NCBI GenBank assembly: GCA_965248445.1
Contig: CBDFJG010000004.1
Location: 1,975,880 to 2,039,879 of the forward strand
Reading direction: 5' to 3'
DNA length: 64,000 nt
From: Planctomycetota bacterium
Lineage (GTDB): Bacteria; Planctomycetota; JAJSAM01; JAJVHW01
The notes under the pieces: generated by a model
Database searches by the model: none
Told to the model about the DNA's origin: nothing
Seen by the model: only the letters and a program-made list of their open reading frames with translations
Part shown: in pieces, positions 31,382-61,660 of the stretch
Numbering within the stretch: position 1 is the stretch's first letter
Layout: each line of letters begins with the position of its first letter
Position numbers and translations under genes: made by a program

Positions 31382-32075
31382 GCTCGAACTCGACCCACTC
31401 GGAGCGCTCGGGGGACTTGCCCTGCTCGAAGCAGCGCAGACCCACCAGCTTCCACGACGGGTGAGAACCGTAGCTCGCGCGGGCGCGGTACGTGCCGGCC
31501 GGGAGGCCTTCTTCGTCCATGGCCACGATGCGGACTTGCAGGTCCAGCGACGCGCCCGACTCGAGCAGGAGCAGGCGGCGCGGCAACTTGTCGGCACTCG
31601 TCTCCACGACGCGGCGGACCTCGACGCCCTCGGAGTCGAGCACCGAGATCACGAGCGTCGGCTGCGGCTCCCCCGCGGCGGGAACGTAAAAGTCGGCAAG
31701 GGTCATGTTGTCCAGCGAGATGCGCGCAGTCAGGGGGCTGCCTGCGCGCATCGAACCGGTGCGAAGTGCGAACTGCACCTCGAGTGAGCCGTCGACGCTC
31801 GGCGTGGCGGCGACGCTCGCAGACGCTGCGGCATCTCGGCCGGCCATCGTCTCGTTCGCCGCGTCCGGTTCCGGCTCCGCTCTGACGCCCGGGGTGGCCG
31901 CGAGCGCGGCGCTGGGCTGGTGGACGACGTCATCGACTCCCGTGATCGGGTCGTTCGCCCTGCCCAGGAACGCGGGCACGGCGACCATCGCGGCGAGCAC
32001 CGGAAGGGCGATCGCGACGGCGGTGAGAGCACGCTTCTGACGACGGTTGAGATTCATGGCCATGGCAGCCTCCAT
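31371..32075 (-). CDS. Hypothetical membrane-anchored protein with an Ig-like C-terminal domain
   Basis: N-terminal TM helix; LPAGTYRARASY strand; start codon uncertain (32075 or 32063). Confidence 0.6.
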   Translation of the reverse strand: MEAAMAMNLNRRQKRALTAVAIALPVLAAMVAVPAFLGRANDPITGVDDVVHQPSAALAATPGVRAEPEPDAANETMAGRDAAASASVAATPSVDGSLEVQFALRTGSMRAGSPLTARISLDNMTLADFYVPAAGEPQPTLVISVLDSEGVEVRRVVETSADKLPRRLLLLESGASLDLQVRIVAMDEEGLPAGTYRARASYGSHPSWKLVGLRCFEQGKSPERSEWVEFELKQ

Positions 32076-32173
32076 GGAGGGGTTCGGGAATCCAGGCCCC
32101 CAGGCTTGAGGGCAGGAGCCTCGCGGAGCCCGGTTTGTTGAGCGGTCGCCGCCGGGATGCCGATACTCCCGGC

Positions 32174-35100
32174 ATGCCTCACCCGTCCCGGCTCCGGCTC
32201 GTTCTGCGCGCGCTCCGCGCCCGCATCCGGGTGGGCGCGGACCCCGAGCGGTGCGTTCCCGGGACGCTCGTTCTCCTGCCGGTCAGGCCGGCCGGCCGGC
32301 TCGTCCCGTGCGGAATCGCTGCGTTCGTCGAGATCGCCGGGGGCGCGGCCCAGGAGACAATGACGACTGCCGGCGCCACGGAAGCCGCTCGACACGTCAT
32401 CGACTCCGGCCTGGGGTCCGGGCACGAGCCGTCGTTGTACGCCGGGGGCGAGGCCACGCTCGACACGCTCACGACATGGGCCCGAGGCCTCAAGCAACGC
32501 GCACGCTTCGCCGCGCTCTTCACGAATGAAGCGGAGCGGGACGGCGTCCTCGGCATCGCCGCCGACCTTCGGAGCTTCGCCGATGGTGAGGATGCGCGGC
32601 TCGCCGCCGCGGCAGACACGCTCAGCGAGGACCGCCTCGAGACGCTCGCGGCGCGGGTGCTCCGCGTCCGCGATGTGGCATGGCACATCGAGAACGAGGC
32701 GCTCTCGCTGCTCCAGGACGTGCGATCGCTGTCCGGAGACGGCAACGCGAACGACTCACTCGTCGCGAACCTGCGGCGTCTATCGGCAGTGTTCCGCAGC
32801 ATCGATCGGATCGAGATCCGCGGCCGCGACTCCGCCGGTGTCGCGGTGCAGGTGACGTTCCCGGGCACCGACGCGCGTGCAGGGTTCTTCGACGCCGTCG
32901 ACGCGGCCGGTTTGCGCGACGCACTGAACGCGCGGTCGGCACTCGCCGACCTGCCGGCGCTATCGGTCTGCGTGGCGCCGGAGTCTCCGGTCGTCACGTT
33001 CGTCTACAAGGTCGCTGCCGAGGTGGGGCGGCTGGGGGACAACGTCGCAGAGCTCTCGCGCCAGGCGCGATCGGATGCGCTGCTGCGCCTGGCTCTCTCC
33101 GCCGACGAGGTCACCGCGGTCGTCCTCGGACACACTCGGTGGGCGTCGTCCGGCGTGATCAGCATCCCCAACTGCCATCCGATCGACAACGAGACGGTCG
33201 CGGGCCGGGATCGCGGTGTCCGCAGCGGGCGTGTGTTCGTCGTGATGAACGGTGACGTCGACAATCACCTCGAACTCCGCGCCGACTACGAGCACGAGAG
33301 CGGCCGCACGATCTCTGCGCCGGTCACCACCGACACGAAAGTCGTGGCACTCGAGATCGAGCGGCACCTGATCGCCGGGGATGCGGTCCTCGATGCGTTC
33401 CGCAAGGCGTGCGCGCGCTTCGATGGGTCGTGCGCCATCGGCATGGTCACCGACCTCGCACCGGGGCGGATCTTCACGTCCCTGCGCGGCAGCGGACAGT
33501 CGCTCTACGTGGGAGTGTCCCTCGACGGGTTCTTCGCATCGTCCGAGGTCTACGGCCTGGTCGAGGAGACGTCGCAGTACGTCAAGATGGACGGCGAAGC
33601 GGAGCGCGTCGCCGGCGACACCAGCACGTCCGGGCAGGTCATCGTCATGGCCTCCGACGTCGAGCGCGGCGCTGCCGGGCTGCGACGTCTCGGGTTCGAC
33701 GGGACGGAACTCCCCGTCGGCGACGACGACGTTCGCGAGGCGGAGATCACGACGAGAGACGTCGATCGGGGCGACTTCGACCACTTCTTCCGCAAGGAGA
33801 TCACGCAGGCCTCGCGCTCCGCGGAGCGCACGCTGCTCGGTCGCGTCGTACACGGCCCGAACGGCTCCTCCGTCGCGCCACACCTCCTCTCCGAGGCCGT
33901 CCGCACGCGGTTCGCTTCGGGCTCTGTCCGGCGGATGTACGTGGCGGGGCAGGGCACGGCCGCGATGGCCGGCGCCGGCATCGCTGAGTACGTGCGCCGC
34001 GTCGTGCCCATGGGCGACATTCGTGTGGAGGCGCTGCCGGCCACGGAGTTGTCCGGGTTCCGGCTCGTCGACGACATGAGCGACACGGTCGTCGTCGCGG
34101 TCACGCAGTCGGGGAGCACCGCCGACACGAACCGCGCGATCGACCTCGCCCGCAAGCGCGGGGCGCTGGTCGTGGCCATCGTGAACCGCCGCAACTCGGA
34201 CGTCACGTATCGCGCGGACGGCGTCATCTACACGTCCGACGGGCGGGATGTCGAGATGTCCGTCGCGTCGACCAAGGCGTTCTATTCGCAGATCGTTGCC
34301 GGCGGCCTGTTCGCGCTGGCTGTGGCGCAGGTCCTCGGCTCGCTCGACGTGCACGAGATCGCGCGGGAGCTCGCGGAGCTCGAGCGCCTGCCTGAACTCA
34401 TGCAGCGCGTGCTCGACAACGAGGATGCCGTGCAGGCGGCCGCGGAGAAGCACGCACCGACGCGCGAGCACTGGGCCGTGGTCGCGAGCGGTCCGAACCA
34501 CGTGGCCGCGCGCGAGGTCCGGATCAAGCTCTCGGAGCTCTGCTACAAGTCCATTGCGGTCGACACCGTCGAGGACAAGAAGCACATCGACTTGTCGAGC
34601 GAGCCGATGACGATCGTGCTCGCGGCGGGCAACCCGGAGTCGGTCCAGAACGACGTCGTGAAGGACGTCGCCATCTTCAAGGCCCACAAGGGATGCGCGA
34701 TCGTGTTCTGCTCCGAGGGCGAGACGCGATTCGACCCGTACGCGGCGGCCGTCGTGCACCTGCCGGATGCTCCGGCGCTCTCGTCAATGGTCCTGTCGGC
34801 TCTGGCGGGCCACCTGTTCGGCTATCACGCGGCGCGGGCCATCGACGGCAACGCGCGATTCCTCGCCGGCGTGCGCGCCGTGCTTGTCGGCGCCCTCGAG
34901 GATCCGGCGCAACGGGACGACCTGCCGGCCAAGATGACGCTGGCGCGACGAGAGTTCCTCACGCGACTGGAGTCCGACCGATTCACGTCCGCGCTCAACC
35001 CGGTCACGGCGGCGCGGCTCGCGATGCTGTTCGACCGCGTCACAGGAGCGGCGGTGATGGACGCCGACACACGCGCGTTCGTGGACGGCGATGGAGAGGA

Positions 35101-42282: not shown

Positions 42283-43372
42283 GGGGCTCCCCCCTTCGCT
42301 CAGGTTGAGCGCCCGATCGGGTGACTAACATCGCACTTACAAGGAGGTGTGATGACCGGTGCCATGATCCCCTTTGCGCGCGACGACTCGCTGCCGGGCA
42401 CACTCGCCGAGTTTGTCGTGAGGTTCTCCGACGAAGATCGGTGTGCAGCCCTGCTGCGCCGGTGGAAGTACGGCGAGGGCGGCTTCCGCTGTCCAGCGTG
42501 CGGCGGCGAGGAGGCGTGGTTCCTGCCGTCACGCCGGCTCGACGAGTGTTGTGCCTGCCACAAGCAGGTTTCGCTCACCGCCGGCACCGTCATGCACGGG
42601 TCTCGCAAGCCGCTACGGCTGTGGTTCCTGGCCATGTATCTGTTCGTGTCGAGCAAGCGAGGCATCTCCGCACTCGAGCTGCAGCGCGAGCTTGGACTGG
42701 CCAAGTACCAGACCGCTTGGACATGGCTGCACAAGTTGCGAAACGCCATCGCGATGCGATCCACCGCGCCGCTGCGCGGACACCTCGAGATCGACGAGAC
42801 CTGGGAAGGCGGACTGCGACATGGCCGGCCGGGGCGTCCCAAGGTCGGCGACCGCAGCGCGCTGGTCATGGGAGCCGTCGAGATCTCACCGCGTCACGCC
42901 CTCATCGGTCGCATCCGTCTCGAATCCATCGCCGATGGTTCGGCTGACACGGTCAAGGCGTTCCTCGAGCAGCACGTCGCCGCACGCTCAGTGCTGTTCA
43001 CCGACGACTGGCGTAGCTATCGAAAGCCGGCTGACGACTTGGAGCACGACCATCGACCGACCAACGTGTCGAAGTCCGACGACGAGGCACACGTTGTGCT
43101 ACCTGCGATCCACCGCGTCTTCTCGCTGCTCCATCGCGTGCTCTTGGGCACGTTCCAGGGCGGCGTGCGACGCAAGTACCTCCCCAGCTACCTGGCGGAG
43201 TTCGAGTTCCGGTTCAACCGACGCACATCGAAGCGACGTGGACTGCTGTTCCAACGACTACTCGCCTGCGCCGTGCGGCGATGCCCTCCCTTCCACTGGG
43301 AGATCGTTGGGCGAACCGATGCGCGCACGCCACTCGCCGCCGCAGCCTGACCTGAGTGAAGAGGGGATCCCC
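42283..43372 (+). mobile_element. IS1595-family insertion sequence
   Basis: IRs GGGGCTCCCCCCTTCGCTCAGGT and (reverse complement) GGGGATCCCCTCTTCACTCAGGT; the flanks show no target duplication. Confidence 0.9.
42352..43350 (+). CDS. IS1595-family transposase
   Basis: CPAC...C.AC zinc ribbon, SLTAGT, GISA.ELQR.LG, EIDET, TDDW..Y and YL.EF.FRFNRR motifs. Confidence 0.93.
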   Translation: MTGAMIPFARDDSLPGTLAEFVVRFSDEDRCAALLRRWKYGEGGFRCPACGGEEAWFLPSRRLDECCACHKQVSLTAGTVMHGSRKPLRLWFLAMYLFVSSKRGISALELQRELGLAKYQTAWTWLHKLRNAIAMRSTAPLRGHLEIDETWEGGLRHGRPGRPKVGDRSALVMGAVEISPRHALIGRIRLESIADGSADTVKAFLEQHVAARSVLFTDDWRSYRKPADDLEHDHRPTNVSKSDDEAHVVLPAIHRVFSLLHRVLLGTFQGGVRRKYLPSYLAEFEFRFNRRTSKRRGLLFQRLLACAVRRCPPFHWEIVGRTDARTPLAAAA

Positions 43373-43402
43373 TGTGCGGGCTAGGGGGCAGGGTGGAGCC
43401 TC

Positions 43403-43431
43403 TTGACATCGATCGGCAACGGACATACTCT
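43403..43431 (+). promoter_or_regulatory. Sigma70-type promoter of the Cys-repeat gene
   Basis: TTGACA (43403-43408), 17-bp spacer, TACTCT (43426-43431); RBS AGGAGG before ATG 43465. Confidence 0.65.
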
Positions 43432-43464
43432 CGTCTCTCGTCGAATGGCATGCAGGAGGCGTTC

Positions 43465-44874
43465 ATGAGCAAGCGTGTATCGGTGTCGGTCGTTCTTGTA
43501 GTGCTCGGCGCGCTGGTGTGGTGTGCGCAGCCCGCCACGTCTTCTGCCGCGGAGCGCGAAACAGAGCCGCGGATCAGCACAACTGAGACTCCAGTGGAGA
43601 CCGCGCGAGCCGAGTCGCCGCTGTTTCGGTACACGTCGATGGCGGCATCGCGCGCCCAACACCGAGCCGGTGTAGATGTCTCCGCCGAAGGATTCGGCGC
43701 ACTCGACATCGAAGAGTGCGTTGACTGCCCGCTACCGCGAATCATCGTCCGCTCGCCGAGAGAGCCTGACACGTCGACGGAACTCGACGCTGGACGCGAT
43801 CCGTGGGGCAGCGCCAGCGGTTCGGTCTGCGGTTACACGATCAACAACCCGGTGTCGTGCGCTGAGTTGATGGCACAGCTCTACCAGGTCGCCGGCTCAG
43901 GCGGCTGGCTCCCGACGACCGGAGGGGAGGGCTGCGCCATTACAGCCGATGCGTCGTGTGCCACGAGCGGTGTCGACTGCTGGACAGAGGACACGGAGGC
44001 GGACGACTGCAGCGTGCAGTACTACTGCACGAACTCGAGTGAGTGCACGACGGACGGTGACTGCAGCGAGGGCGATGCATGCACGAGCGGGCAGTCCTGT
44101 TCCGAGGAGGAGGGGTGTACGCGCGGAGGCAACTGTACGGAGGGACAGTACTGCTCGGCCGGCGATAAATGCACCGCCAACGCCAAGTGCAGCCAGCACG
44201 AGTCATCGTCGGACGACGAATGCACCGAGGGCCCGCACTGCAGCGAGGGCGACAAGTGCACGGCCGGAACTCACTGCTCCGACGCGGACGAGTGCACGAA
44301 GGAAGGCAACTGCTCGTACGGCACAGATTGCACGACCGGTAACGATTGCACGAAAGACTCCGACTGCTCCGACAACTCGTACTGCACCCACGGCGGGAAC
44401 TGCTCGGATGGCGCAAACTGCACCGAGGGCAACAACTGCACGACCGGAGGTGGTTGCTCCGCGGGCACGAAGTGCACAGCACACGGGTCTTGCTCGATCA
44501 ACGTCGCATGCACGAGCGGCGACGTCTGCTCGTCTGCCGACGGCTGCACAGCCTCATACGTTTGCTCGTCTGCCCCAGACTGCACATCAACTATCTCGTG
44601 CTCGAAGGGCAAGTACTGTACGTCCGGATCTCATCTCTGCTCAGACGATCCCAGCTGCACTCAACATCCTGGATGCGAGGATGACGACGAGGAGCCGCCG
44701 CCGGGCTTCGTGATGCTGGATCTACTCGCGCCGTTCGGCGTCGGCGAGCACGCCAAGACGATGGCTTCGATGCTCGGACTTCTTCTAATCGGTCTCCTCA
44801 GCGGCAGTCTGATGCAGCGGAAGACCGGAGACGCGTCAATCGCGCAGCCGGACCGAGCCGACCACGGCGCGTGA
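43465..44874 (+). CDS. Secreted, C-terminally membrane-anchored Cys-rich hexapeptide-repeat protein (469 aa)
   Basis: Signal peptide MSKRVSVSVVLVVLGALVW; 36 C-[S/T] units; acidic/Pro linker, TM helix MASMLGLLLIGLLSGSLM and basic QRK tail. Confidence 0.88.
   Translation: MSKRVSVSVVLVVLGALVWCAQPATSSAAERETEPRISTTETPVETARAESPLFRYTSMAASRAQHRAGVDVSAEGFGALDIEECVDCPLPRIIVRSPREPDTSTELDAGRDPWGSASGSVCGYTINNPVSCAELMAQLYQVAGSGGWLPTTGGEGCAITADASCATSGVDCWTEDTEADDCSVQYYCTNSSECTTDGDCSEGDACTSGQSCSEEEGCTRGGNCTEGQYCSAGDKCTANAKCSQHESSSDDECTEGPHCSEGDKCTAGTHCSDADECTKEGNCSYGTDCTTGNDCTKDSDCSDNSYCTHGGNCSDGANCTEGNNCTTGGGCSAGTKCTAHGSCSINVACTSGDVCSSADGCTASYVCSSAPDCTSTISCSKGKYCTSGSHLCSDDPSCTQHPGCEDDDEEPPPGFVMLDLLAPFGVGEHAKTMASMLGLLLIGLLSGSLMQRKTGDASIAQPDRADHGA
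44008..44676 (+). repeat. Coding repeat (C-[S/T]-x-x-x-x)n: 37 Cys in 223 aa
   Basis: Counted from CSVQYY to CTQHPG-C: 34 hexamers, one 11-mer and one 7-mer. DNA units are diverged, so this is not recent slippage. Confidence 0.95.
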
Positions 44875-45054
44875 CGGCGGTTGCGCGACGCTGCGGGCCC
44901 CGTGGGCCGTGATTCACGAGTGACGCGCGCGGCGCCTTGACGCTCCGTGGCGATCACTTCTCTCCCAGTGGCGCTCTCGTCACTACCGGCGGCGGATGGT
45001 CCGATGTTCCGAGACAGCGAGCGCTCGACCGAGAGCACGCCTGGGGAGGGAGTG

Positions 45055-46626
45055 ATGGGCAGTCGATGCAGGAGCGCCGCAGTCGCGATGGGCGTCGCCG
45101 CGGTTGCAGCGGTGACCGCCTGCGGCAGTACGATTGGCCGGACTCCACAATCCTCGGGCGACGCGGTTTCCGCCCCTCCCCGGCGCCACGCAGCACCGGA
45201 CTCGCACGACACCTCCATCGGTTCCAACGTGCAACGCACAGCCGGAGTGGAACCGCCGGGAACAGAGCAGTCGCGCGGACTGCCGGTCGAGGGGACTGCT
45301 GCGCCGCGCTCGACGTTGGATGAGCCCCGTGGCATCTCGGGTGAGCTGCCGAGATCGGCAGCGGACTACCTTCGTGTAACCGGGGTCCCGCTGTCCCGCT
45401 GGAGCTTCCTTGCGAGCAAGGACGCGAGCCTCGTGTTCCCTGCGCTCTCGGCTCCGAGCGCGGTCGTAGCCCTCGGCGAGGCGACCCATGGTTCGCGCGA
45501 GTTTGTCCGCATACGACTCGAGCTCACGCGCGAACTGGTGGACACATTCGCATTTGAGATTCTCGCCCTGGAGGCAGCGCATGGCGAGTGCCGAGCGATC
45601 GACAGGCTCCTGTCCGCGTCCAACCAAGTCGCCGACACGGAGCGCCAGATCGAGCTGGCCCTGGGCGAAGTTCGCTCGCCGCTACAGCGCACCGAGGCCC
45701 TGCGAGAGGTGTTCCGGTGGATCGCCGAGCGGAACGCGACCATCGGGGAGGAGCCGCGGATCCGCGTCATTGGTATTGACCTTGGATTCAGCACCCAGCA
45801 GGTCTCTGAACTCCGCACTCTTCTCCGGGGGCTGGGCTCCGAGCGCGCCAGGACTCTCGCCGACAAGATCGCAGATACGCAGCCGTCATCGCTCCGCGGC
45901 GCCACGCCGGCGAGTCTCCGCAGCTGGGTCAAACTGGTCCGCGACGCGGAGTCGGTTCTCGACGACAATCGCGACCACCCGCGCATGAAGAGACTGGACG
46001 AGACGTGGGACCTGGTGCGACACGTGCCCCGGCTCATTCGCCAGACAGTGGAGTTCGCACTCGCGCGCTCAGCGCGCCGCGCCACCCAAGTGCGCGACAT
46101 GGCGATGGCGGAGTCTCTGATCGCCTTTGCCGGTGACGCGCGGCGGCCGCGCCGGGTTGTGGCGTGGCTTCACGACCTCCATGTGCGGCGATACGAGTCG
46201 CCGGATGGCCGAAAGGCGTGCGGTCAGCTGCTCCATGACACGCTCGGGAACCGCTACGTGCCGATTGGAACGACGTTCTCGAGGGGCAGCACCCTCGCAC
46301 GCGACGGTCACTCCCCGACGCACTCCATTGCTGAGTTCGTACTTGGCGACGCGAAGCCCGGATCCGTCGAGGCTCTGCTAGAGGCCGCGACATCTGGGAC
46401 GCCGACCGTGTTCGATGTTCGGCACAGCGCTCATCGGGAGTACACGCGTGCGACCGAGCGGGCTCTTCTTCGCACCTACCAACGCCGCGCGATCGGCATC
46501 GTCATCGACTCGGAGCGCGTTGCGCGGTGGGTCACCGTGTGCCCGCAAGCGGAGTACGACCTGATCGTCCATGTTCCCCAGGTCACAGCCGCCACGCCGC
46601 TGCAGCAGTCAGATTCTGATCGATGA
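45055..46626 (+). CDS. Erythromycin esterase-family lipoprotein
   Basis: VTAC lipobox; VVALGEATHGSREF, LALEA, GID, RD.AMAE, WLHDLH, G..L...LG.RY..IG and YD...H motifs. Confidence 0.85.
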   Translation: MGSRCRSAAVAMGVAAVAAVTACGSTIGRTPQSSGDAVSAPPRRHAAPDSHDTSIGSNVQRTAGVEPPGTEQSRGLPVEGTAAPRSTLDEPRGISGELPRSAADYLRVTGVPLSRWSFLASKDASLVFPALSAPSAVVALGEATHGSREFVRIRLELTRELVDTFAFEILALEAAHGECRAIDRLLSASNQVADTERQIELALGEVRSPLQRTEALREVFRWIAERNATIGEEPRIRVIGIDLGFSTQQVSELRTLLRGLGSERARTLADKIADTQPSSLRGATPASLRSWVKLVRDAESVLDDNRDHPRMKRLDETWDLVRHVPRLIRQTVEFALARSARRATQVRDMAMAESLIAFAGDARRPRRVVAWLHDLHVRRYESPDGRKACGQLLHDTLGNRYVPIGTTFSRGSTLARDGHSPTHSIAEFVLGDAKPGSVEALLEAATSGTPTVFDVRHSAHREYTRATERALLRTYQRRAIGIVIDSERVARWVTVCPQAEYDLIVHVPQVTAATPLQQSDSDR

Positions 46627-48737
46627 CCGGTCGCCGTACGTTGGTGTCAGTCATTCCATCTGGGCTGATCGTCGTGTTAGCGATAGCCGCGATGGCCTCG
46701 ATTCCTCCAACCGGCGGCGCGCCCGCAGGCGGTCCGCGCGCGTCAGATGTGGCGCAGCCTCCTCAGATTCTGTCGATAGTGCCGGACGTCGCACTAAACG
46801 CGTTTTCAGCCGGTGACGCCAGGGACGGGTTGCTTGTTGAGATACTCTCGCTGGAGACGCTCCTGGGAAACAAGCTGGACGTGCTCGACCTCGTCGATGA
46901 CTGGGGGGCGCGCGAGTCGATCGACCTCGACGACCTCTTGAGCCTCCTGGACCCTGACGAGCGCGTCAGCCTCCTCGACGCCAGGGAGTATGTAGATACC
47001 GCCGTCCTGCTGGGAGCGGTCCGCCATCACAGTGTCCGGCGCGTCGTCGAGCGCCTGCGCTCCGGGAGAGGCGACGGTGGGCTCTCGCCCACCGTCGAGG
47101 ACTGGCTTGCCAGGCACGGCAACATCCTCGACCTGCTCAGCTCCCTCGACCGGAATGGTCCAACGCGAATCTCGCTTGCCTCTCATGGCGAGCGACCGAC
47201 GGACAGTGATCTGCTCATCATCCGAGAGCAGTTGGATGCTCGGACGGCGGGGGGCGTGTCCGAAGCGGACTCGCGCGTGCTCTTCAGGCTTGCCATTCTC
47301 GCGCGCTGGGGCGATGAGGAGAGCCTGGCGCGACTCTCACGAGGGTTGGCTGCGGCGACACTGCAGGAACTCGTCGCTCTCAGCGACGAGGGCGCAGAGC
47401 GAGGCCCGCTCCTCTCGGTTTTTCGACTCTCGCGAGGCCCCGCTCTGGCCCTCAGCGTCCTCCGAACGGATCAGATTGAACTCCTCATACGAGGAGTTCG
47501 GGAGTCCGATCCCGGCACCCACCGCGACGTTCTCATGGCCACCTGCCTGATTGCCGCCGGATCGCCCTCCCGCGAGGCGTCGCCGTCGCTGATGAGTCTG
47601 TGCATGCGACATCTGGAAGCGCCAACGCTTGTGAGGGTGCCGGCAGCGCTTGCCGTGATGAGTCAGGGATTCGTGGCAGATGCAGGATCGACGCGGGACG
47701 CGGCTGTTGCGCTCGTCAACGAGCACGTGCGAACCAGCGGGGAGATCGAGTTGCTCACCTCGCTCCTTCCGCGCTGCCGAGCCATCTTCTACTTGATAGC
47801 GGTGTTGGAGCGCGAACGCGCCGCCGACGGCGCCGGCGACGCCGCATGGAGAACGATGACGCTCGAGATCCTCGGCCGGTGGCTCGAGGAGGAGTTCATG
47901 TCGAGCCCCACGGCGGCGGTGTTCCGACGGCGCCCGGACGCCGATCGGTTGCGACGACATCTGCAGAAGCTCGACCGCGCCGACGCCGCGCTCGACGTAC
48001 GGATCGCGCTGACCGCCGGTCTTCTCTACGCGACCTCGATCGGCACGGAGGGCGCCCCGCGGCACAAGGACGCCGTCCTTGAGCTCTACGAAGACACGGA
48101 CCTCGCCGAGGCGAAGTACGACGACATTTGGCTGTTTCGGTCGATACCACGCCTGCTCCTACCGTTCGAGCTCGCGGACGACGGCGTCAGCCATGTCGCG
48201 CGTCGATTTCAGGACCGCAACCTCATGGTGATGCGGTTCGAGCCGCTGCTCGTGGCCCTGATTGCCCACGGAGCACGCCATGGTCACCACGAGGTCCGCG
48301 CGCTGCAGTTGTCGTACGAGCGCTTCGCGCTCTCGCACCCGAGTCCGCCGCAGCGCGCTTGGTCCGCCTCGCTGGCGATCCGGAGTAGCGCGGGGCGAGA
48401 CGAGGTCGTCCGAACGACCACGCTTCTCGCTCGGCGGGGGGACGTCGAGGCGCTCGCGGCAGCGCTCAGAGCAGCTCGCGACGTCGCCATCGTTCGGAAC
48501 GACTACTCGGCCGCGGACCTGGTTGCCTGCCTGAGGGTCTTGTTCTCCGCGTGCGAGCCCACCACCCCAATGGCGCCCCTCTTCGAGAGCGTCGAAGACT
48601 TTGCGGGTGTCGGTGACGACGCGTTTCGCGACGCTGTCGCCACCGGGCTGGCCCAACTCTCGGAGCAGGTTCACTGGCGGGGCAAACTAGCGTCGGTTGC
48701 CGCGAAGTTCCGTACGCCCGGCGGTGAGGAGCAATAG
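46623..48737 (+). CDS. Hypothetical exported alpha-helical (HEAT/ARM-like) protein
   Basis: N-terminal TM/signal; Leu/Ala/Arg-rich; ATGA coupling to the upstream gene and TAG/GTG overlap with the downstream gene. Confidence 0.65.
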   Translation: MTGRRTLVSVIPSGLIVVLAIAAMASIPPTGGAPAGGPRASDVAQPPQILSIVPDVALNAFSAGDARDGLLVEILSLETLLGNKLDVLDLVDDWGARESIDLDDLLSLLDPDERVSLLDAREYVDTAVLLGAVRHHSVRRVVERLRSGRGDGGLSPTVEDWLARHGNILDLLSSLDRNGPTRISLASHGERPTDSDLLIIREQLDARTAGGVSEADSRVLFRLAILARWGDEESLARLSRGLAAATLQELVALSDEGAERGPLLSVFRLSRGPALALSVLRTDQIELLIRGVRESDPGTHRDVLMATCLIAAGSPSREASPSLMSLCMRHLEAPTLVRVPAALAVMSQGFVADAGSTRDAAVALVNEHVRTSGEIELLTSLLPRCRAIFYLIAVLERERAADGAGDAAWRTMTLEILGRWLEEEFMSSPTAAVFRRRPDADRLRRHLQKLDRADAALDVRIALTAGLLYATSIGTEGAPRHKDAVLELYEDTDLAEAKYDDIWLFRSIPRLLLPFELADDGVSHVARRFQDRNLMVMRFEPLLVALIAHGARHGHHEVRALQLSYERFALSHPSPPQRAWSASLAIRSSAGRDEVVRTTTLLARRGDVEALAAALRAARDVAIVRNDYSAADLVACLRVLFSACEPTTPMAPLFESVEDFAGVGDDAFRDAVATGLAQLSEQVHWRGKLASVAAKFRTPGGEEQ

Positions 48738-51130
48738 TGACCGGTCACGCAGCGGCCGCGCAGCACGCAACGGCGATGTCTTCGTCACAGGCACGAGCGC
48801 GAGATGCGTTGTTCGCCGTCCTTGCGATTGCCGCCATGACCGTGCTCCGCGGGCCGAACGTCGTCGCGACTCCGTTCCTCCGCCTCTCTCACCTTGTGCT
48901 GTGCCTGATCTTGCTCCTCTGCGCAACGGCACAGGTCACCGACCTGCGCGCAGCCGTCCGAAGTAGGCGGGCATGGCTCGGCGTTGGATGCTGCCTCTCG
49001 TACGTCGCGTACTTGGGCGTGGCCGAGGATCCGTCTCCGCTGTTCTTCGTGTTTGTGTACGGCGTGGGCACGCTCGCGTTCGGATCCAGATCGACACCGC
49101 CGTTCCGATGGGCCATCGTGCAGTCCAGCGCGGTCTTGTACTGCGCTCTGGCTCTGGCGGACCAATCGGTCCTGTGGACTGCGTCGGTCTCCGATGCCAT
49201 CGCTCCCTACTGGGGAGACGGCGACGTCGCACCCGCTTCCGACGTCAGTCGCGTCGGCGTTTCCTACAGGGGCATCTGGATCGCGCTGGGTGTGGGAATT
49301 CCCCTCGCGCACGGGATCATCGTGCGCTCCGCCTCGCGTGCGCAGCGCATCGGCAGTGGAGTGGCTCTCCTGGCGCTGTTCTGGACCCTTCATCGAGTCC
49401 CTCCAACGAACGACGTACTGATCCCGTGGATCACGGCCTTGGGGCTACTGACCGCGGCACTCTTGGTTCCAGGAAACGAGCAAAGAGAGGTAAGCGGCGG
49501 AGTCCTGCACCGCGTCTCCGCGGTCGGAACGGCAACGCTCCTGGCGTCAATTGCGCTCATCGCGTTCTCACCCCCAACCGGGCAACCGGACGGCCGCATC
49601 ACGTTGGTGCGCGGCGCCTACAACACCTGGACGCCAACAGAGGAGGACCGAACTCCCCAGACCGGCGCCATGGTTGGGTACTTCCGGATGCTCCTTGAGC
49701 GGATTCCGATTGAGACATCCATCGTGGATCGCGTCGAAGACCTGCCTCTCGACACGAGCGTCGCAGTACTGGTGAATTACTTCGGATCCCTGAATGGCCA
49801 AGGAGTAGCAGACGCAGCCACCCTCGAACGACTCGAACAGTTCGTTGAGAATGGAGGCACGCTTCTCGTATTCGGAGATCACACCGACATCTCCGGGAAC
49901 ATGAGGGCGATCAATCCGCTCCTGACGAAGTACGGGATCGAGTTCATCTTTGATAGCGCGATGCCGAGAACAGAAGGGGGTTGGAACGGGGCGCTGGCAT
50001 TCGCTTCACATCCGATGTTCAACATCGTCGAGACCACTGACGAGTTCCGAGTCAGTGTCGGCGCAACGCTTCAAGTCGGCCCCCCGGCGCGGCGCCTCAT
50101 CGTCGGGCGCGCGGGATTTAGCGATTGGGGCGATCGCAGCGCCCCCAACCGGGCATTCCTCGGCGATTGGTCTCTCGGGCCGGGTGAGCGACTCGGAGAT
50201 GTGGCGCTGGCTGCATCCGCACCGTCGTCGAGCGGACGCGGCCGTATCATCGTGATTGGCGACACGTCGATGTTGCAGGAACTCTCGCTTTCGGCAAGTT
50301 GGCGATTCGTCACTTCCCTGCTCACGTGGAGCGCGACGGCGCCCGCCTCAGGTTCTCAGCGTGTTCCGGCTGGCGTGGCTCTCCTCGTGATCGGCGCGAT
50401 CGTGGTTGTCATAGGCGGTGCGCGGTCGTCGCTCTTGACCGTCACGCTGGTGCTCTTGATCCCGCTCGCGAGTATCTCGATCGCCTCGTTCGTTGCTCAC
50501 CGATCTCAAGGCGCGCTGCTGCGTCCTGTCGGCGTCGCGTGGCTACGCGGGCATCGAGGATTCGGCTCCCCGACGTACGGTTCGGGCCCCGCGAGTCTTG
50601 AGGAGTTTGGGCACGCACTGGCGTTCGCGGACTTCCTGCCACTCGTCGATCGAGACGGCGACGTGGGGACTTATGATCACGGCGATGCCGTGGTCGTGCT
50701 TCCAGGGAGCGGCCCCATGACAGTGGATGAGGCGAACGACCTGCTCCAGTTCGTCGAACGAGGCGGCACACTTCTCGTGATCGGCGGACACGAGGACCAA
50801 GAGTCTCTTTCACCGCTCCTCGATCAACTGCGCGTCGAGATCGCAGATGTTCCGCTGGGACGCTGCGTGGGCGTGCGGTTCCCGTCCGGCCCCAAGGGTG
50901 GTCAGTTCCGGCAGGCGTGGGCAATCCTCGGCGAGCAACCGGCGCACGCTGATGTGATTGCCACCATGGACCAGTTCCCTGTTGCGATGCGCTGGCGACG
51001 CGGGGCAGGCGTCGTGGCCCTGATCGCGGACGCCGACTTCCCGACCGATCGGTGCTTTGAGCGCGATGAGCAGCCAGTTTGGGAGGTCTTCGAGTTCCTC
51101 CGCGACACGCTCACCGGAGCCGATCTGTGA
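48737..51130 (+). CDS. Polytopic membrane protein with two GATase-like/DUF4350-type soluble domains
   Basis: About 8-9 N-terminal TM segments; FVENGGTLLVFGDHTD, GRGRIIVIGDTS and a second FVERGGTLLVIG domain. Confidence 0.72.
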   Translation: MTGHAAAAQHATAMSSSQARARDALFAVLAIAAMTVLRGPNVVATPFLRLSHLVLCLILLLCATAQVTDLRAAVRSRRAWLGVGCCLSYVAYLGVAEDPSPLFFVFVYGVGTLAFGSRSTPPFRWAIVQSSAVLYCALALADQSVLWTASVSDAIAPYWGDGDVAPASDVSRVGVSYRGIWIALGVGIPLAHGIIVRSASRAQRIGSGVALLALFWTLHRVPPTNDVLIPWITALGLLTAALLVPGNEQREVSGGVLHRVSAVGTATLLASIALIAFSPPTGQPDGRITLVRGAYNTWTPTEEDRTPQTGAMVGYFRMLLERIPIETSIVDRVEDLPLDTSVAVLVNYFGSLNGQGVADAATLERLEQFVENGGTLLVFGDHTDISGNMRAINPLLTKYGIEFIFDSAMPRTEGGWNGALAFASHPMFNIVETTDEFRVSVGATLQVGPPARRLIVGRAGFSDWGDRSAPNRAFLGDWSLGPGERLGDVALAASAPSSSGRGRIIVIGDTSMLQELSLSASWRFVTSLLTWSATAPASGSQRVPAGVALLVIGAIVVVIGGARSSLLTVTLVLLIPLASISIASFVAHRSQGALLRPVGVAWLRGHRGFGSPTYGSGPASLEEFGHALAFADFLPLVDRDGDVGTYDHGDAVVVLPGSGPMTVDEANDLLQFVERGGTLLVIGGHEDQESLSPLLDQLRVEIADVPLGRCVGVRFPSGPKGGQFRQAWAILGEQPAHADVIATMDQFPVAMRWRRGAGVVALIADADFPTDRCFERDEQPVWEVFEFLRDTLTGADL

Positions 51131-53691
51131 GCAGGCTGGGCTTCTGTCGCGCCTCGCTCCTCGGCCTTCCGGTCGCGCTGGTCACGCTCTCCACGTATGC
51201 ACGATCGCTCCCGCCGAGCGAGGCAATCGGACTCGGCGCAGCAATTGGGACGACCATCGCGATGTTCGCACTGTTCGGACCACGGGACGATCGAGTTACC
51301 GAAGGAAGTGTCGGGCGATTCGAGCTGGCCGGGTGCGCCTTGATCGCCGTCCTTGCGACCTACGCCGGGCTCGAGTTCGCGCGATGGGCGACTGCGGCGA
51401 CTGCCGCGCTGGCCGTCGCGGTGACAGCCAGTTTCCTCGCATCGCGCGTGCCGGTGCAACTTCGACGCGCCCTCGTGCGCGCAGGAGACGGGGCGAGATG
51501 GAGTTCGCAAGCGGTCCTCCTCAGCGGCGTTCTGTACGCCGCGTACTGGGAAGCCGAGCCGTTCCTGCAGAGTGTCGAGTTCGGCGCCCCTCTGGCATCA
51601 GCGGCCGCACGGCTGCTCGGTTGGCATGCCAGTGTCGACGGTCGGGGACTCGGACTCGCAACGGGCGAGCACAGGTCGTTCTTCGGCATCTCGCCACGAC
51701 ACGGAGAGGTATTCCCATCGCTCCTGTTCTGCGGCTACGTTGCGGTCTCGGTCGCGACGAGCCGATCGCTCGCTCTCCGCGAACGCGTGTTGCGCTGTGC
51801 CGCTGCGGTGCTCGCCGTCCTGACGTGGCGCGAGATTCTCGTGCTCGGAAAGGCCACGCTCACGTCGACGGACTCCTGGCATCTCGAGATGGCTATGAGC
51901 ACCGAGCTGTATCTGCTCGCCCAAGTGCCGGCTCTGGTCGCAATTGCTGCGCTCGAAGGGCGTCCAGCCGCCGTCTCGGCGCGGCCGGAGCCTCGGAAGC
52001 TGAGACTGACATCGTCTGCCTTCGCACTATCGGTTGCGTTGCTAGTGTTCCCACTGCTGTGGATAGACCATGGCACCCCGAAGGCCGGCCGGATCGCCAT
52101 TGACGACGCTCACAGTGACTGGGAGTGGTCCACGATCCCGCTCAACAAGACAGTCTTCGGACCGAAGACGACCTACAACTACTGGAGCATGAACGAACTA
52201 CTGGGGAGGCACTTCTCAGAGCTACACGTCAATGAAGAGGACGTGCTCGATAGCGACACGTTGAGGAGCCACGATGTCTGGATACTGAAGACTCCGACGC
52301 GCCCATACACGTCGGAAGAATTGTCTGCCATACATCAATACGTTCAGGACGGTGGCGGAGTCTGGCTCATTGGCGATCACACCGACATCTTCGGGATGAA
52401 CACGTATCTGAATCAAGTATCCGAGCGCTACTCCATCCACTTCAACACCGACGCGGTTGGACCACAAGACTGGACAGGCAGAGTGCGCCAGCTCTGGACT
52501 CCGCCTCGGAGAAGTCATCCGATTGCAGGACAGATCCAGGAGTTCCAGTGGGCCACATCGTGCAGTCTCGGCGCATCTCCGTGGACATCGGACGTGGTAA
52601 TGGCGGGTCACGCACTCAGCGCGGATGGCGTCGATTACGCCCTCAACACTGGATTTGGCGATCACATACAGGACGCGTCTGAGCCGTACGGCAGGATGCT
52701 GCAGTGTGTAGCTGTCCGGTCGGGTCGGGGGCGCGTACTCGCGTTCTCCGACAGCACCGTGTTCTCGTCCTTCTTCTTTCACATACCCGGCAAGCCAGAG
52801 CTGGCGATCGGAAGTGTCTGGTGGCTCAACCACTCGAACGGATCGGACCGGTGGCGGTACCTACTCTTCTTGCTGGGGTGCGCACTCGCGGCCACCGTGA
52901 CAACGGCTGCAATCCGACGCGACAATCAACCGACGGCCGGCGGCGTGGTCATCGGAGCGCTCACAGGGCTGAGCCTCGCGGCGGCTGCATCGATGTGGGC
53001 CGCGCGCAACCACCATCCCGAGCCTGCAGACGCGAGAGATGAGCGCGACAGGGTCGCGTTCGTCAGTTCGGATGATCGAGTCTTGCCCGCGCGCACGTCG
53101 GTCTCGCACGACGAGAGTTCCCCAGTTGTGTTCCAGACGCTGTTCGTTTGGACGCAACGCGCCGGGCTAGTCCCGGAGTTTGAGCCGCAGGTTCCCGTCG
53201 ACGCATCTCGTTTCGTCGGGTTGGTGCTCATCTCGCCGGACGGCCTTGCCGAGGAGAGCCTGGACCGCCTCGCGACATACGTTCACTCTGGTGGCAATGT
53301 GCTGGTCCTGTCGGAGAACGGCGCAGCGCTACGCACAATACTCGGGACGCTCGGAAACGCGAATTCGGACGTCGTCGAACTCTCGAACGCGGAGGGCGGC
53401 ACAGAGACCCAGTTGAGTCTGCACCGGTCAGACTCGTGGGAGACGATCTTGCTCCCCGACAGCGGACTCCGCCTCCGTGGAGTAGACGCAATTCTGACCA
53501 CGCGTGACGACGAGATCGTGCTCGGCGTAGTCCGACACGGCGCGGGGCACCTCTATCTGAGCACAACGTCGGCCGGGTTTTCGAACGCATGGTGGGGCGG
53601 GACGACAATGATCCCGACGAAGTCGCGGTACGCAGCGTACGAGCTGTACTGGGATCTGATCGACCGCTGGTCGGCCGACGCTAGCCGCTAG
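51127..53691 (+). CDS. Paralogous polytopic membrane protein with an exosortase-like TM region and two GATase-like/DUF4350-type domains
   Basis: GTGA coupling; IAIDDAHSDWEW, ILKTPT.PY, YVQDGGGVWLIGDHTD, GRGRVLAFSDST and YVHSGGNVLVL motifs. Confidence 0.72.
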   Translation: MSRLGFCRASLLGLPVALVTLSTYARSLPPSEAIGLGAAIGTTIAMFALFGPRDDRVTEGSVGRFELAGCALIAVLATYAGLEFARWATAATAALAVAVTASFLASRVPVQLRRALVRAGDGARWSSQAVLLSGVLYAAYWEAEPFLQSVEFGAPLASAAARLLGWHASVDGRGLGLATGEHRSFFGISPRHGEVFPSLLFCGYVAVSVATSRSLALRERVLRCAAAVLAVLTWREILVLGKATLTSTDSWHLEMAMSTELYLLAQVPALVAIAALEGRPAAVSARPEPRKLRLTSSAFALSVALLVFPLLWIDHGTPKAGRIAIDDAHSDWEWSTIPLNKTVFGPKTTYNYWSMNELLGRHFSELHVNEEDVLDSDTLRSHDVWILKTPTRPYTSEELSAIHQYVQDGGGVWLIGDHTDIFGMNTYLNQVSERYSIHFNTDAVGPQDWTGRVRQLWTPPRRSHPIAGQIQEFQWATSCSLGASPWTSDVVMAGHALSADGVDYALNTGFGDHIQDASEPYGRMLQCVAVRSGRGRVLAFSDSTVFSSFFFHIPGKPELAIGSVWWLNHSNGSDRWRYLLFLLGCALAATVTTAAIRRDNQPTAGGVVIGALTGLSLAAAASMWAARNHHPEPADARDERDRVAFVSSDDRVLPARTSVSHDESSPVVFQTLFVWTQRAGLVPEFEPQVPVDASRFVGLVLISPDGLAEESLDRLATYVHSGGNVLVLSENGAALRTILGTLGNANSDVVELSNAEGGTETQLSLHRSDSWETILLPDSGLRLRGVDAILTTRDDEIVLGVVRHGAGHLYLSTTSAGFSNAWWGGTTMIPTKSRYAAYELYWDLIDRWSADASR

Positions 53692-53738
53692 CAAGCGATC
53701 TCGAGCCGCGGGAATGACTCCGAGGAGACGATTCGGAA

Positions 53739-54086
53739 GTGTCGCCAGCCACGGAGGCCGTCGTCGGCGTCGCGTTCCGGTTCGTCCTTAGTTGGACGAC
53801 GCTCGTGGCCGCGATCCGGATCGTCCAGGATCGGATCGGGCTCGGAGTTCCCGAGACGCGGACGCTGTGGTGGCAGACCGCGGCGATATCGCTCGCGACA
53901 TCGCTGACCGCCGCAATTCCGGGCGTAGGAGCGGTCCTGGCGCTGATCCCGTTCTACCTTCTGGCGACACGGTGGTTCCAGCCGACACTCATGGGATGCG
54001 CCGTTCTGTGGATCGTGCAGCTAGGGCTGTCGTACGCCGTCGTGTCGTTGCTTGCTCTGGGGTACGTCGTCTACCTGGGCCTCTGA
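53739..54086 (+). CDS. Small integral membrane protein (about 4 TM)
   Basis: GAGGAG upstream; 115 aa, almost entirely hydrophobic. Confidence 0.65.
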   Translation: MSPATEAVVGVAFRFVLSWTTLVAAIRIVQDRIGLGVPETRTLWWQTAAISLATSLTAAIPGVGAVLALIPFYLLATRWFQPTLMGCAVLWIVQLGLSYAVVSLLALGYVVYLGL

Positions 54087-54098
54087 CAGGCGCGCCCT

Positions 54099-56210
54099 CT
54101 ATCGCGCGACGCGGAGTCTTGTTGTCGCGTCAGCGACTGCCAGCCTCAGTCGACTGTCGGGGATCTCAACCGTAGAGAGCCGTGCGACGAGCTCGCGCGC
54201 AACACTCGGGTCGGACGCGTGAGCCCAGCGACTGAGAGACTCGGCGATCTCTAGCTTCGAAGAGAGTGATGCACGTTCCGATGTCAGCGTGTCGACGATG
54301 GTCTGCACCAGCTCTTCAGCGCTGATCCACGTCCGGGCGCGCGACATGACCGCCAGGGTATCCAGAGCCGATGCGAGCGCCACCCCTTCGACAGGGATCT
54401 TGCATGCACTGATGACGGCCCCCACGTCGGTCGTAGTCGATGCCAATCGGAGTGCCGCGCGCGCCGCACACTCGCGCACACGAGCGTGCGAGTTTGCACT
54501 AATGAGATCGGTCAAAACTGCGAGAAGTTCAGCGCTGCCCAGTTCGCGACGCTCGGGCCCGAGCCGGTCGAGCAACCGGCGGAGTTCTTTCGACCGCGCG
54601 GAGCTCGCAGCGATCTCCTTAATGTGGACGACGAGCTCCTCGTTCGTCATCGCCATAGTCACCATCGGCTCGATCAAGAGACGATGGTCGCGGCGTATCT
54701 GACCTTCCAACTCCCGCTGCGGCCCAAATCTGCGGACCAGCTCTACGACTGAGAGCACGGGTGTCGATCCGAGGTCCGCTCCCATGCGCAACACGACAAC
54801 CTCGATCGCCGCGCGCGCGATCAAGAAGCGCGGGTTCGCGGCCGGCCAGCCCAGCGCACGGAGTTCTGCAGCAGTTCGTGCTACCGATCGCTCACCTTCT
54901 GACTCGCTGCTTTCTTGCGGTATGCGAGCGACGACGCGTAGCGATCGCGCAATCGCACTCGTCAGCATGTCAGACCACAACTCAGCGTCCGGCTCCCCAG
55001 CGTTGTCGATGCAGATACGAGCCGCCACTAGCAGTCCGGCAAGATGATCCAACCGAAAGGAGTATCCGAGGACCTCGTCGGGCGTAGGGTCGAGCGCACG
55101 TATCCGTTCTCGTGTGAGGCTGTCATTCCAGTCACGCCTCACAATCTCGCCGAGCTGGAAGTGAACGGCGGTCTCGCGTACCTGTGGCCGCGAGTCACGC
55201 ACTAGGTCGATGAGAGTCGGCTCGAGATCCACATTGCCGGTGTCGCGCCTCGCCAGCTCGTCGACAAGGAGAGTGGCACGAACGCGATCGCCCGATTCAG
55301 CGGACACGTCCGAGCTCGCTCGAACGAGCGCGAGTAGATCACTGTCATCGAGCGTCCGGAGAGTCGGTAGCCATCGTTCGCGGAGTCCTCGAAGATCCGC
55401 GGGGGTCGCGAGCGTTGCCCCATTCTCCGTCTCGAACGCCGTAGTCTCGAGTTCGCGAAGAAGAAGCGCTCGCGCTTCGTCATCCCCGTGCGCGGCGAGA
55501 AACGACAATCGAGAACGCAGCTCGACGCGCCACTGACGAGGCTTGTTCGCGCGAACGTCAGCAATCCGTCCCCAGAGCGCCGAGCGAGCTTCCGGGCTGA
55601 GATCCCCGTCAGTTCGTGCCGCATCTAGCATGGAGTGGTCATGCTTCAGAGATGTCACCGCAACGCGGTCGGCTGCGGCGTTGGATGCGTACCATTCCTT
55701 GAGTGGCTCGGACCACGGACCTCGAACGTCGTCCTCGAGAAACGTCAGCACGAAATCGGTCTCCGCCAGGGCGGACAGCGCCGCAAGCGCTACTGTGTCG
55801 ATTCGCGCGCACTCGCGGGAGCCGATTGCAGAGGGGTGATCCCGAAGCAGCTCAAGCAGAATGGGGATCATCTGTTCGCCGGTGGCCACCCACTCTTCAA
55901 CAAGTCGCTCGTAGTCCGCTTGCGTGCCACCAGCGACAGAGAGCTCGACCAGCCGATGCGCGGCGCGTCGTCGCGCTGCCTCAGCGTCCCACGGACTGGG
56001 TTCGCCGTACTGGCTGTTTTCGCCGATCTCGTCGTCCTGCGCGCTGCGTGACGCGCGGTGGCGTGGGGCGGAGTCAGCGGGAGGTCCATCAGAGTCGGTT
56101 TCCGCATGCTCAGCCAGCCTGTCATCCGGTCGCGGATGGCCTTCGCGAGTGGCCAGGATGAGAAGGCTCGCGAGAATGAGCGCCAACGCTGTGAAGATCC
56201 GAACCCTCAT
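54099..56210 (-). CDS. Hypothetical exported alpha-helical (HEAT-like) protein
   Basis: Signal MRVRIFTALALILASLLILA; HEAT-like segments L..LVRDSRPQVRETAV and ARVRECAARAAL. Confidence 0.62.
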   Translation of the reverse strand: MRVRIFTALALILASLLILATREGHPRPDDRLAEHAETDSDGPPADSAPRHRASRSAQDDEIGENSQYGEPSPWDAEAARRRAAHRLVELSVAGGTQADYERLVEEWVATGEQMIPILLELLRDHPSAIGSRECARIDTVALAALSALAETDFVLTFLEDDVRGPWSEPLKEWYASNAAADRVAVTSLKHDHSMLDAARTDGDLSPEARSALWGRIADVRANKPRQWRVELRSRLSFLAAHGDDEARALLLRELETTAFETENGATLATPADLRGLRERWLPTLRTLDDSDLLALVRASSDVSAESGDRVRATLLVDELARRDTGNVDLEPTLIDLVRDSRPQVRETAVHFQLGEIVRRDWNDSLTRERIRALDPTPDEVLGYSFRLDHLAGLLVAARICIDNAGEPDAELWSDMLTSAIARSLRVVARIPQESSESEGERSVARTAAELRALGWPAANPRFLIARAAIEVVVLRMGADLGSTPVLSVVELVRRFGPQRELEGQIRRDHRLLIEPMVTMAMTNEELVVHIKEIAASSARSKELRRLLDRLGPERRELGSAELLAVLTDLISANSHARVRECAARAALRLASTTTDVGAVISACKIPVEGVALASALDTLAVMSRARTWISAEELVQTIVDTLTSERASLSSKLEIAESLSRWAHASDPSVARELVARLSTVEIPDSRLRLAVADATTRLRVAR

Positions 56211-56290
56211 CGCGCGCACCACTCCAAACGGTCTCCGGGGTTGCCGCGCATGATCACGATGCAAGTATAGCGGCCCAGCCTGGAGTGGCC

Positions 56291-56474
56291 GAGTTATGAC
56301 CAAGAGTTGTGGCTGGGCGCCACCGGATTTCAGGCGGCGACCTTGATGCCATCCTTGAATTGGACGCCGGTGATGACGTCGGCCAGCAGCGTGGCTGCGT
56401 TGAGTTTTCTCCCGTTGCGCTGAGCTGCCAGAGCCAGCTTGAAGACCATCGCAAGACAGGCCTTCGCAGACATG
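56291..56474 (-). mobile_element. IS256-family remnant (transposase C-terminus and right end)
   Basis: LAMVFKLA..AQ...RKLN....LADVI.GV.FKDGI* and terminal ...CCACAACTCTTGGTCATAACTC. Confidence 0.75.
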
Positions 56475-60854: not shown

Positions 60855-61341
60855 CGGACGCGCCGAAGAACCGCTCGAAGGCCGGGTCCGCCGCGGCGCC
60901 CGGCGCGTTCGGGACCTGGACGCGGGCGCGCGAGGACGGCGTCATCCCGAACTCCACCAGGACCCGCACGAGCTGCTCGGTCGCCTTGGTCGCGATGGCG
61001 AGGTAGGGCGACTGCATCGGGTAGCCGTTCGGCGACATGATGATCGTGCCGTGCTCGCGCAGCTTCTCCTCGGCGTCCACGAGCCGCGCCCATGTGAGGC
61101 AGTACGTCGTGAGCGCGGCGCCGTCGATCTCCGACAGCAGCCCGAGGGCGTGGAGCTTCTTGGCCATGCGCCGCCACTCCGAGCGCGCCTCGCCCTGGAG
61201 CACCTTCGGGCACTTGGGGATCACGGCCTTCGGCCTCGGCTCCTTGGCGTTGAGCTTGCGCTTGCCGGGGTTGCCGGCCAGCACCTTGAGCGCCGTCGGC
61301 TTGGGCTTGCGGCCGCCGCCTGGTCCGCGCGACCTACCCAC
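60844..61341 (-). CDS. terS: Phage terminase small subunit, P27 family
   Basis: GRKPKPTALK.L.GNPGKR.LN, L...AR.EW, D..AL..YC, SPY and EFGMTPSSR motifs. Confidence 0.93.
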   Translation of the reverse strand: MGRSRGPGGGRKPKPTALKVLAGNPGKRKLNAKEPRPKAVIPKCPKVLQGEARSEWRRMAKKLHALGLLSEIDGAALTTYCLTWARLVDAEEKLREHGTIIMSPNGYPMQSPYLAIATKATEQLVRVLVEFGMTPSSRARVQVPNAPGAAADPAFERFFGASGGT

Positions 61342-61660
61342 AGCGCACCTCTCGTCGAGGGAGCCGCACGTACCGGATCGGGATGCCGATCGCCTTAGCT
61401 GCTGCGATCTCCGTTGCCATCCCGTCGGTGGGTGGTCCGAGGACGAGGACCTCGTCGGCGACCGCGAGCCACGCGAGTCCGGCGCCGATTCCGAGGGCGC
61501 GTTCTGCTGCGTCACCGTCGTCGAGAAACGTCGGGTAGAGCAGATGCGGCGCGAGCGGCGCATCCCCGGCGCGTGCCACCTCGCGGCACGCTGCTCGAGC
61601 AACCGTCGCGTTCGCGGCGACGTCACCACGGAGGGGCGAACAGACGAAGACGCGCTTCAT
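61334..61660 (-). CDS. Phage protein (DUF4406/nucleoside deoxyribosyltransferase-like fold)
   Basis: VFVCSPLRGD, P.APHL.YP.FLDD and GM..EI..A...GIP motifs. Confidence 0.75.
   Translation of the reverse strand: MKRVFVCSPLRGDVAANATVARAACREVARAGDAPLAPHLLYPTFLDDGDAAERALGIGAGLAWLAVADEVLVLGPPTDGMATEIAAAKAIGIPIRYVRLPRREVRCG

Follow-up and report, generated by a model that had tools for sequence, protein, structure and literature searches.

The window considered here is a 64,000-nucleotide stretch of a Planctomycetota genome (contig CBDFJG010000004.1, positions 1,975,880 to 2,039,879), and the subject of this study is P0001, a gene in it for a predicted surface protein with a long Cys/Thr/Ser repeat, together with two membrane proteins, subunits A and B, encoded downstream of it. 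P0001 is very likely a client of A and B and is probably one client of an undescribed export-and-maturation system that is widespread in bacteria and archaea; no description of such a client with its A/B pair was found in the open literature, closed journals and supplements lying outside that search. The features of P0001 and of the pair are as follows.

43465–44874, + strand: client gene P0001, 469 amino acids, encoding a signal peptide, a leader, a repeat core rich in Cys, Thr and Ser, an acidic linker and a membrane helix at the C terminus
43465–43548, + strand: predicted Sec signal peptide (about residues 1–28 of P0001), a basic N terminus followed by a hydrophobic stretch
43615–43665, + strand: leader motif starting SPLF (residues 51–67), a divergent member of the S-P-[LV]-[FY]-x-x-[SIA]-[LA] leader
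43918–44676, + strand: 40 units of [S/T]-x4-C (T152 to C404), including the 37 Cys first noticed
44761–44817, + strand: predicted membrane anchor at the C terminus, with basic residues after it
48737–51130, + strand: subunit A, 797 amino acids, with nine predicted transmembrane (TM) helices, then a GATase-like (GIFT/DUF4350) domain, two more TM helices and another GATase-like domain; G-D-H-T is invariant
51079–53691, + strand: subunit B, 870 amino acids, paralogous to A and laid out alike; G-D-H-T and D-S-T are invariant, and an intramembrane Arg is conserved

An earlier note on this DNA had described a Cys at every sixth residue between 44008 and 44676. That segment reads through on the + strand without a stop for 223 amino acids, 37 of them Cys; successive Cys lie six residues apart in 34 of 36 cases (the other gaps are 11 and 7), and 36 of the 37 are followed by Ser or Thr (20 Thr, 16 Ser), the last being followed by Glu. 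In 100,000 residue shuffles of the repeat, six-residue gaps and Cys followed by Ser/Thr reached at most 11 and 22, respectively. The remaining regularities of that description also hold: the Ser and Thr after Cys alternate in 31 of 36 successive pairs, a value matched by none of 100,000 order shuffles, Gly is the commonest residue at hexad position 4 (18 of 36 hexads), and none of the 37 Cys has Thr before it, hence the motif TCT is absent. Tethering to the cell, which the note had supposed, agrees with the predicted signal peptide (boundary estimated by eye from the sequence; N-terminal hydropathy 2.6) and C-terminal membrane helix; about 150 residues separate the signal peptide from the repeat, and an acidic, Pro-rich linker follows it. 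The repeat is therefore real, but both its start and its unit need to be redrawn. Three further units lie 5′ of 44008, and the array begins at 43918. Because Ser or Thr stands five residues upstream of the Cys (−5) in all 40 cases from C157 to C404, and directly after it (+1) in 36 of 40, the repeat unit of P0001 is [S/T]-x4-C, in 40 back-to-back copies, and the C-[S/T] dipeptide that had been taken as the constant feature is a side effect of tight unit packing. No other coding array of six-spaced Cys was found across the 5.4-Mb genome, the second period-6 match being an opposite-strand shadow, and P0001 matched no Pfam family at E ≤ 0.1, only a weak off-target NCBIfam entry (E 0.0067) and no PDB sequence significantly (1EZG, E 2.9).

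A protein search with P0001 returned five relatives and a profile search 755 matches; the best 150 of these were inspected and 34 of like build were kept. These members, hereafter the CT-type family, combine a signal peptide and a brief conserved motif with C-[TS]-x-G-x-x hexads, and most of them also end in a membrane helix; those with named hosts come from Planctomycetota and Fimbriimonadales. Eight other proteins (P0017, P0050, P0059, P0064, P0067, P0097, P0111 and P0130) are short, have C-[TS]-[LIF]-G-x-x hexads and no signal peptide, and form a separate Cys-rich hexapeptide-repeat family. CT-type clients are rare, occurring in 2 of 401 genomes sampled from the phylum of the window, and both of these fall among the 25 genomes of that sample that have B. 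In genome G088 the client is followed by the same two membrane proteins, with gene order kept.

The association extends well beyond the CT type. Searching with a B profile turned up 199 relatives in genomes and 281 in metagenome stretches; their hosts, by record titles, span many bacterial phyla and Thermoplasmatota and include the cultured, named species Sagittula salina (L072) and Methylobacterium nonmethylotrophicum (L083). The best 80 from each source gave 160 related loci (L007–L166), many of them short contigs. A and B occur together in 132 of the 160, and a strict periodic-Cys client is present in 60 (26 of the 52 loci of at least 18 kb), compared with 2 of 267 control pieces, one of those two being P0001 itself; with a leader profile the count of loci with clients rises to 75. 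Just past the signal peptide these clients share S-P-[LV]-[FY]-x-x-[SIA]-[LA] (45 distinct leaders from 71 clients), and their C-terminal surface anchors vary among a type IX secretion system (T9SS) tail, SLH domains, choline-binding repeats and a membrane helix. Among the 40 commonest neighbor clusters, judged by eye from representatives, no further enzyme family recurs. All 12 CT-type loci fall in one 15-tip clade of the B tree (support 0.90), the remaining three tips showing no client, and the offset type follows the B tree, though kin share labels. In 20 fresh loci, A and B were both present in 18, and clients with a fixed Ser/Thr offset in 8, three of them with Cys gaps of 6 to 24 residues; by eye, the last Cys lacks its Ser/Thr in six of these eight. 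Some clients have unusual builds: L018:3658–6165 holds two tandem signal–leader–core cassettes within one open reading frame (ORF), L221:2–7099 is a 2366-residue ORF upstream of A with a C-S repeat core at its C terminus, and L089:4271–8335, beside A/B, encodes an Rhs/YD-repeat protein in which an SPLF leader interrupts the core motif of Rhs and a core with Cys at every fifth residue replaces the usual C-terminal domain.

Across these clients the hydroxyl residue keeps its place relative to Cys. At the six Cys of P0001 where the −5 and +1 rules part (C157, C165, C172, C182, C253 and C392), Ser or Thr is at −5 in every case, the local background being 0.17; at the decoupled Cys of 33 family members it is there in 47 of 70 cases, with 10 to 15 at each of the other five offsets. 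Inner Cys of CT-type clients are followed by Ser/Thr in 1430 of 1477 cases and last Cys in 11 of 49, and the first Cys has Ser/Thr at −5 in 27 of 48, the mean at other upstream positions being 8.8; that is, the arrays start with a Thr that has no preceding Cys and end with a Cys that has no following Thr. In the CT type the paired position itself admits only hydroxyl residues (1317 of 1348 positions). In TC-type clients the inner Cys are paired with Ser/Thr in 821 of 881 cases and the last in 7 of 29, and in SxC-type clients the figures are 231 of 235 and 2 of 9. Among clients with non-adjacent pairs, five with varying Cys–Cys gaps have Ser/Thr at −8 in 77 of 89 Cys; in two others, out of 73 Cys, 47 have it at −9 and 31 at −8. 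Nearly every client Cys therefore has a Ser or Thr at a fixed offset, even when Cys spacing varies.

Both membrane subunits match DUF4350/GIFT domains, and neither matches LanB/LanC, LanM or LanKC/LanL in Pfam or NCBIfam. Averaged hydropathy and the positive-inside rule predict the nine-helix block, GATase-like domain, two helices and second GATase-like domain with both soluble domains facing outward. In its first GATase-like domain each subunit has an invariant G-D-H-T (93 sequences of A, 107 of B), and the unvarying D, H, T, K and E suggest an active site. In the A subunit of the window, residues 604, 607, 623, 630, 657 and 784 of the second GATase-like domain, 87–97% conserved elsewhere, are lost; the client leader is also divergent. 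The TM domains align weakly with exosortase (PF09721; HHalign E values of 0.027 and 0.029 at a probability below 2%, with E ≥ 0.28 in 20 column shuffles), the positions of its E-A-C-S-G motif being occupied by E-K-L-G in B and P-T-x-S-G in A. The catalytic Cys of that motif is missing, and A and B were accordingly rejected as active exosortases.

A leader, a core in which every Cys has a hydroxyl residue upstream, and a pair of dedicated partners amount to the logic of lanthipeptides, whose leader–core arrangement and Ser/Thr-to-Cys chemistry are described in PMC13504147, and it is therefore our preferred reading that A and B install Ser/Thr–Cys thioether (lanthionine-type) links outside the cytoplasm, a chemistry to which we give an even chance of being correct. 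P0001 would be exported via Sec and anchored in the membrane, A and B would recognize the leader behind the signal peptide, and their outward GATase-like domains would catalyze a reaction in which Ser or Thr loses water and the Cys five residues downstream adds, perhaps with the two steps divided between the subunits, in the manner of LanB/LanC. The hydroxyl might be activated by metal-assisted elimination at the invariant Asp/His or through a lipid donor held by the intramembrane Arg of B. The product would be a stiff, protease-resistant surface chain in which some 40 rings of six residues follow one another and no thiol is free; it might serve as a stalk, a coat or an adhesin. More tentatively, and with somewhat less than even confidence, the system may represent a new class of surface proteins resembling peptides that are made on ribosomes and modified after translation (RiPPs), in which a GATase-fold membrane pair makes dozens of extracytoplasmic Ser/Thr–Cys thioether rings, leader-guided and without ATP or tRNA.

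Several observations weigh against thioether formation by A and B. Known lanthipeptide enzymes activate Ser/Thr by phosphorylation or glutamylation, according to PMC13504147. Such activation needs cytoplasmic donors, and the activation of Ser/Thr outside the cell is the main weakness of the proposal. To our knowledge it has no extracytoplasmic precedent. Among solved structures, the A/B domains come nearest to the GIFT domains of IFT52, which are not known to be catalytic. The strict Ser/Thr alternation in the P0001 subfamily, and a structure model with β-bridges about every 12 residues, fit a coil better than independent rings. The leader of P0001 scores only 4 bits against the family leader profile, aligning on SPLF, and its leader region matches that of P0140 at E 5e-8. 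Of the 20 fresh loci, 8 show no client; a Thr follows the last Cys in L211; Rhs-type neighbors in L212 and L218 have no Cys-rich core; and Thermoplasmatota clients have only one to five Cys after the leader. TPR-like proteins directly upstream of A (L209:13110–14141 and L220:13113–14057, − strand) carry the leader and only two Cys past the signal region, and are possibly accessories or decoys. Moreover, the loci are partly kin or duplicates, and the significance of the associations is therefore overstated. The few Cys of the Thermoplasmatota leader-bearing proteins (L055:13579–14262, L076, L156 and others; a family in 22 loci) lie in a hydrophobic C-terminal segment.

Among the alternatives, the earlier note had favored a disulfide-laddered solenoid like that of beetle antifreeze proteins: a β-solenoid with 12 residues per coil, Cys(i)–Cys(i+6) disulfides and rows of Thr and Ser on two faces. 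In the gene context described here, A and B would then be a leader-guided folding or export chaperone. The Ser/Thr alternation and the modeled β-bridges stand in its favor, yet the solenoid leaves unexplained the Ser/Thr at −5 of decoupled Cys, the asymmetry of the array ends and those clients whose Cys lie 6 to 24 residues apart. The 12-residue period is missing from the other 26 family members, neither subunit alignment contains a conserved CxxC, and PF02420 is not among the matches of the 34 members at E ≤ 1. Cys number, even in P0001, is even in 34 of 82 mature clients (21 of 48 of CT type), a weak test, the positive control being unbiased as well (30 of 55). Overall, the solenoid seems to us unlikely, albeit still a rival. 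The claim of ice binding or ice nucleation that its resemblance invites would draw on the Thr-rich, periodic surface protein and its 12-residue Ser/Thr alternation. It is highly improbable, because TCT occurs in 0 of 37 Cys of the core, and it does so in just 49 of 1099 Cys of the family; the core is strongly acidic and variable at other positions, and the same system serves clients of unrelated periods. P0001 is thus probably not an antifreeze protein.

Two further explanations were considered. A and B might help to decorate the Ser/Thr beside each Cys with a glycan, phosphoglycerol or an acyl group from a lipid donor, the Cys being free or in disulfides; the Cys-anchored O-fucosylation consensus of EGF and TSR repeats offers a parallel for such site recognition. 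Consistent with this are the strictly fixed offset of Ser/Thr from Cys, the C-S dipeptides retained in L211, L219 and L221 although spacing varies, a weak match of A to OST48_N of Pfam (E 0.007), and the intramembrane Arg251 and E-K-L-G of B, which align weakly with exosortase. However, the 40 commonest neighbor clusters (by eye) include no recurrent family of glycosyltransferases or of sugar pathways, the TM domains hold no conserved acidic motif save the Glu in the E-K-L-G of B, and O-modification predicts neither the extra upstream Thr nor the unpartnered last Cys; we regard it as rather improbable. Alternatively, the core, with 37–40 Cys, 33 Asp/Glu and 7 His, could be a metallothionein- or bufferin-like surface chelator of metal or mineral through free thiolates and hydroxyls, loaded or protected by A and B, and exported Cys-rich RiPP metallophores do exist, as PMC11626156 reports. 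Chelation does not require a fixed Ser/Thr–Cys register, though, and neither an MNIO-type nor a metal-transport family recurs in the loci (by eye), which leaves this explanation very doubtful. If instead the thioether proposal is true, lanthionine chemistry would be performed by an unrelated enzyme family at the membrane's outer face, on whole surface proteins with 10–90 rings, giving GIFT/DUF4350 domains their first catalytic role, revealing a new route to lanthionine and providing a leader-portable tool for stapling secreted proteins. Should the chemistry be different, a two-gene system that combines a leader with a constant Ser/Thr–Cys register is still widespread.

Two further genes lie between the client and A.

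44947–46626, + strand: erythromycin-esterase-family gene (PF05139, E 4e-39), between the client and A
46623–48737, + strand: 704-residue protein, lying directly upstream of A, that fits no known family and carries a hydrophobic helix at its N terminus; related loci do not conserve it

The former has no BLAST relative in loci L007–L166 and is probably a passenger. Directly upstream of the client is an IS1595-family transposase (42349–43350, + strand) with 10 near-identical copies in the genome (G000), and a second repeated element (G000:C1, about 31890–33400, and elsewhere) is present in 72 copies that are ≥99% identical across more than 700 bases, which makes for an unusually heavy insertion sequence load. 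Facing the operon, 54099–56303 (− strand) encodes a 734-residue protein without a known family and with a weak HEAT-like match. Because the GC content of 43400–56300 is about 64%, compared with 70% on both sides, this segment is suggested to be an acquired island. Beyond it, 58044–64000 (− strand) holds ORFs that we take, from their translations, to be prophage-like: one resembling a terminase large subunit, apparently with an intein, one resembling a small terminase and one resembling a ParB/DNA methylase.

P0001 and its partners share features with several known systems and differ from each in others. Like the antifreeze proteins of Tenebrio molitor, Dendroides and Dorcus (1EZG), it has Cys at every sixth residue, a small residue at C+3, Thr beside Cys and, in its subfamily, a 12-residue period. 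The beetle consensus, as given in PMC8038014, places a TCT ice-binding motif in each 12-residue repeat, and P0001, with six-residue spacing in 34 of 36 gaps and TCT at 0 of 37 Cys, was rejected as a member of that family. Left-handed β-helices of the LpxA type carry a large aliphatic residue in each hexad; the hydrophobic fraction at hexad positions 2–6 of the CT-type family is at most 0.17 (624 hexads), and this fold was rejected as well, Hexapep matching 3 of 34 members (best E 0.0085). The Cys-every-fifth RiPP CefA (NF038108) shares a periodic Cys core, and period-5 clients of A/B match NF038108. P0001 differs in having no such match; SPASM radical-SAM genes (TIGR04085) are absent from G000 (92% complete; the control was positive in 9 of 14 genomes), for which reason a CefA-type or ranthipeptide origin was rejected, and neither such an enzyme nor an MNIO recurs near A/B (by eye). 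Bufferins, as portrayed in PMC11626156, resemble A/B clients in placing a signal peptide on an exported Cys RiPP. The TM domains of A and B give a weak alignment, in register, with the exosortase/archaeosortase motifs E-A-C-S-G and N-x-x-R; unlike those enzymes, the pair lacks the catalytic Cys and serves clients with many different C-terminal anchors. Both soluble domains of each subunit match GIFT/GldG/DUF4350 domains (IFT52, PDB 5FMR), which in A and B, unlike IFT52, are doubled, fused to 11 predicted TM helices, always paired and marked by invariant D/H/T/K/E. Finally, P0001 and its partners are not a lanthipeptide system by their enzymes, A and B matching no Lan enzyme, and no LanC, LanB or LanM-type gene was found in G000, where positive controls for these were silent. 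Unlike lanthipeptides, the clients carry a signal peptide, a surface anchor and up to about 90 Cys per core, and their partners are membrane proteins whose GATase-like domains face outward and which match no LanB/LanC, LanM or kinase-lyase, the cross-link here being a proposal. The system may nonetheless work in the way of lanthipeptides. As in the LanB/LanC, LanM and LanKC systems, an amphipathic leader precedes a Ser/Thr/Cys-rich core, a hydroxyl lies upstream of each Cys, and two partner genes accompany the client.
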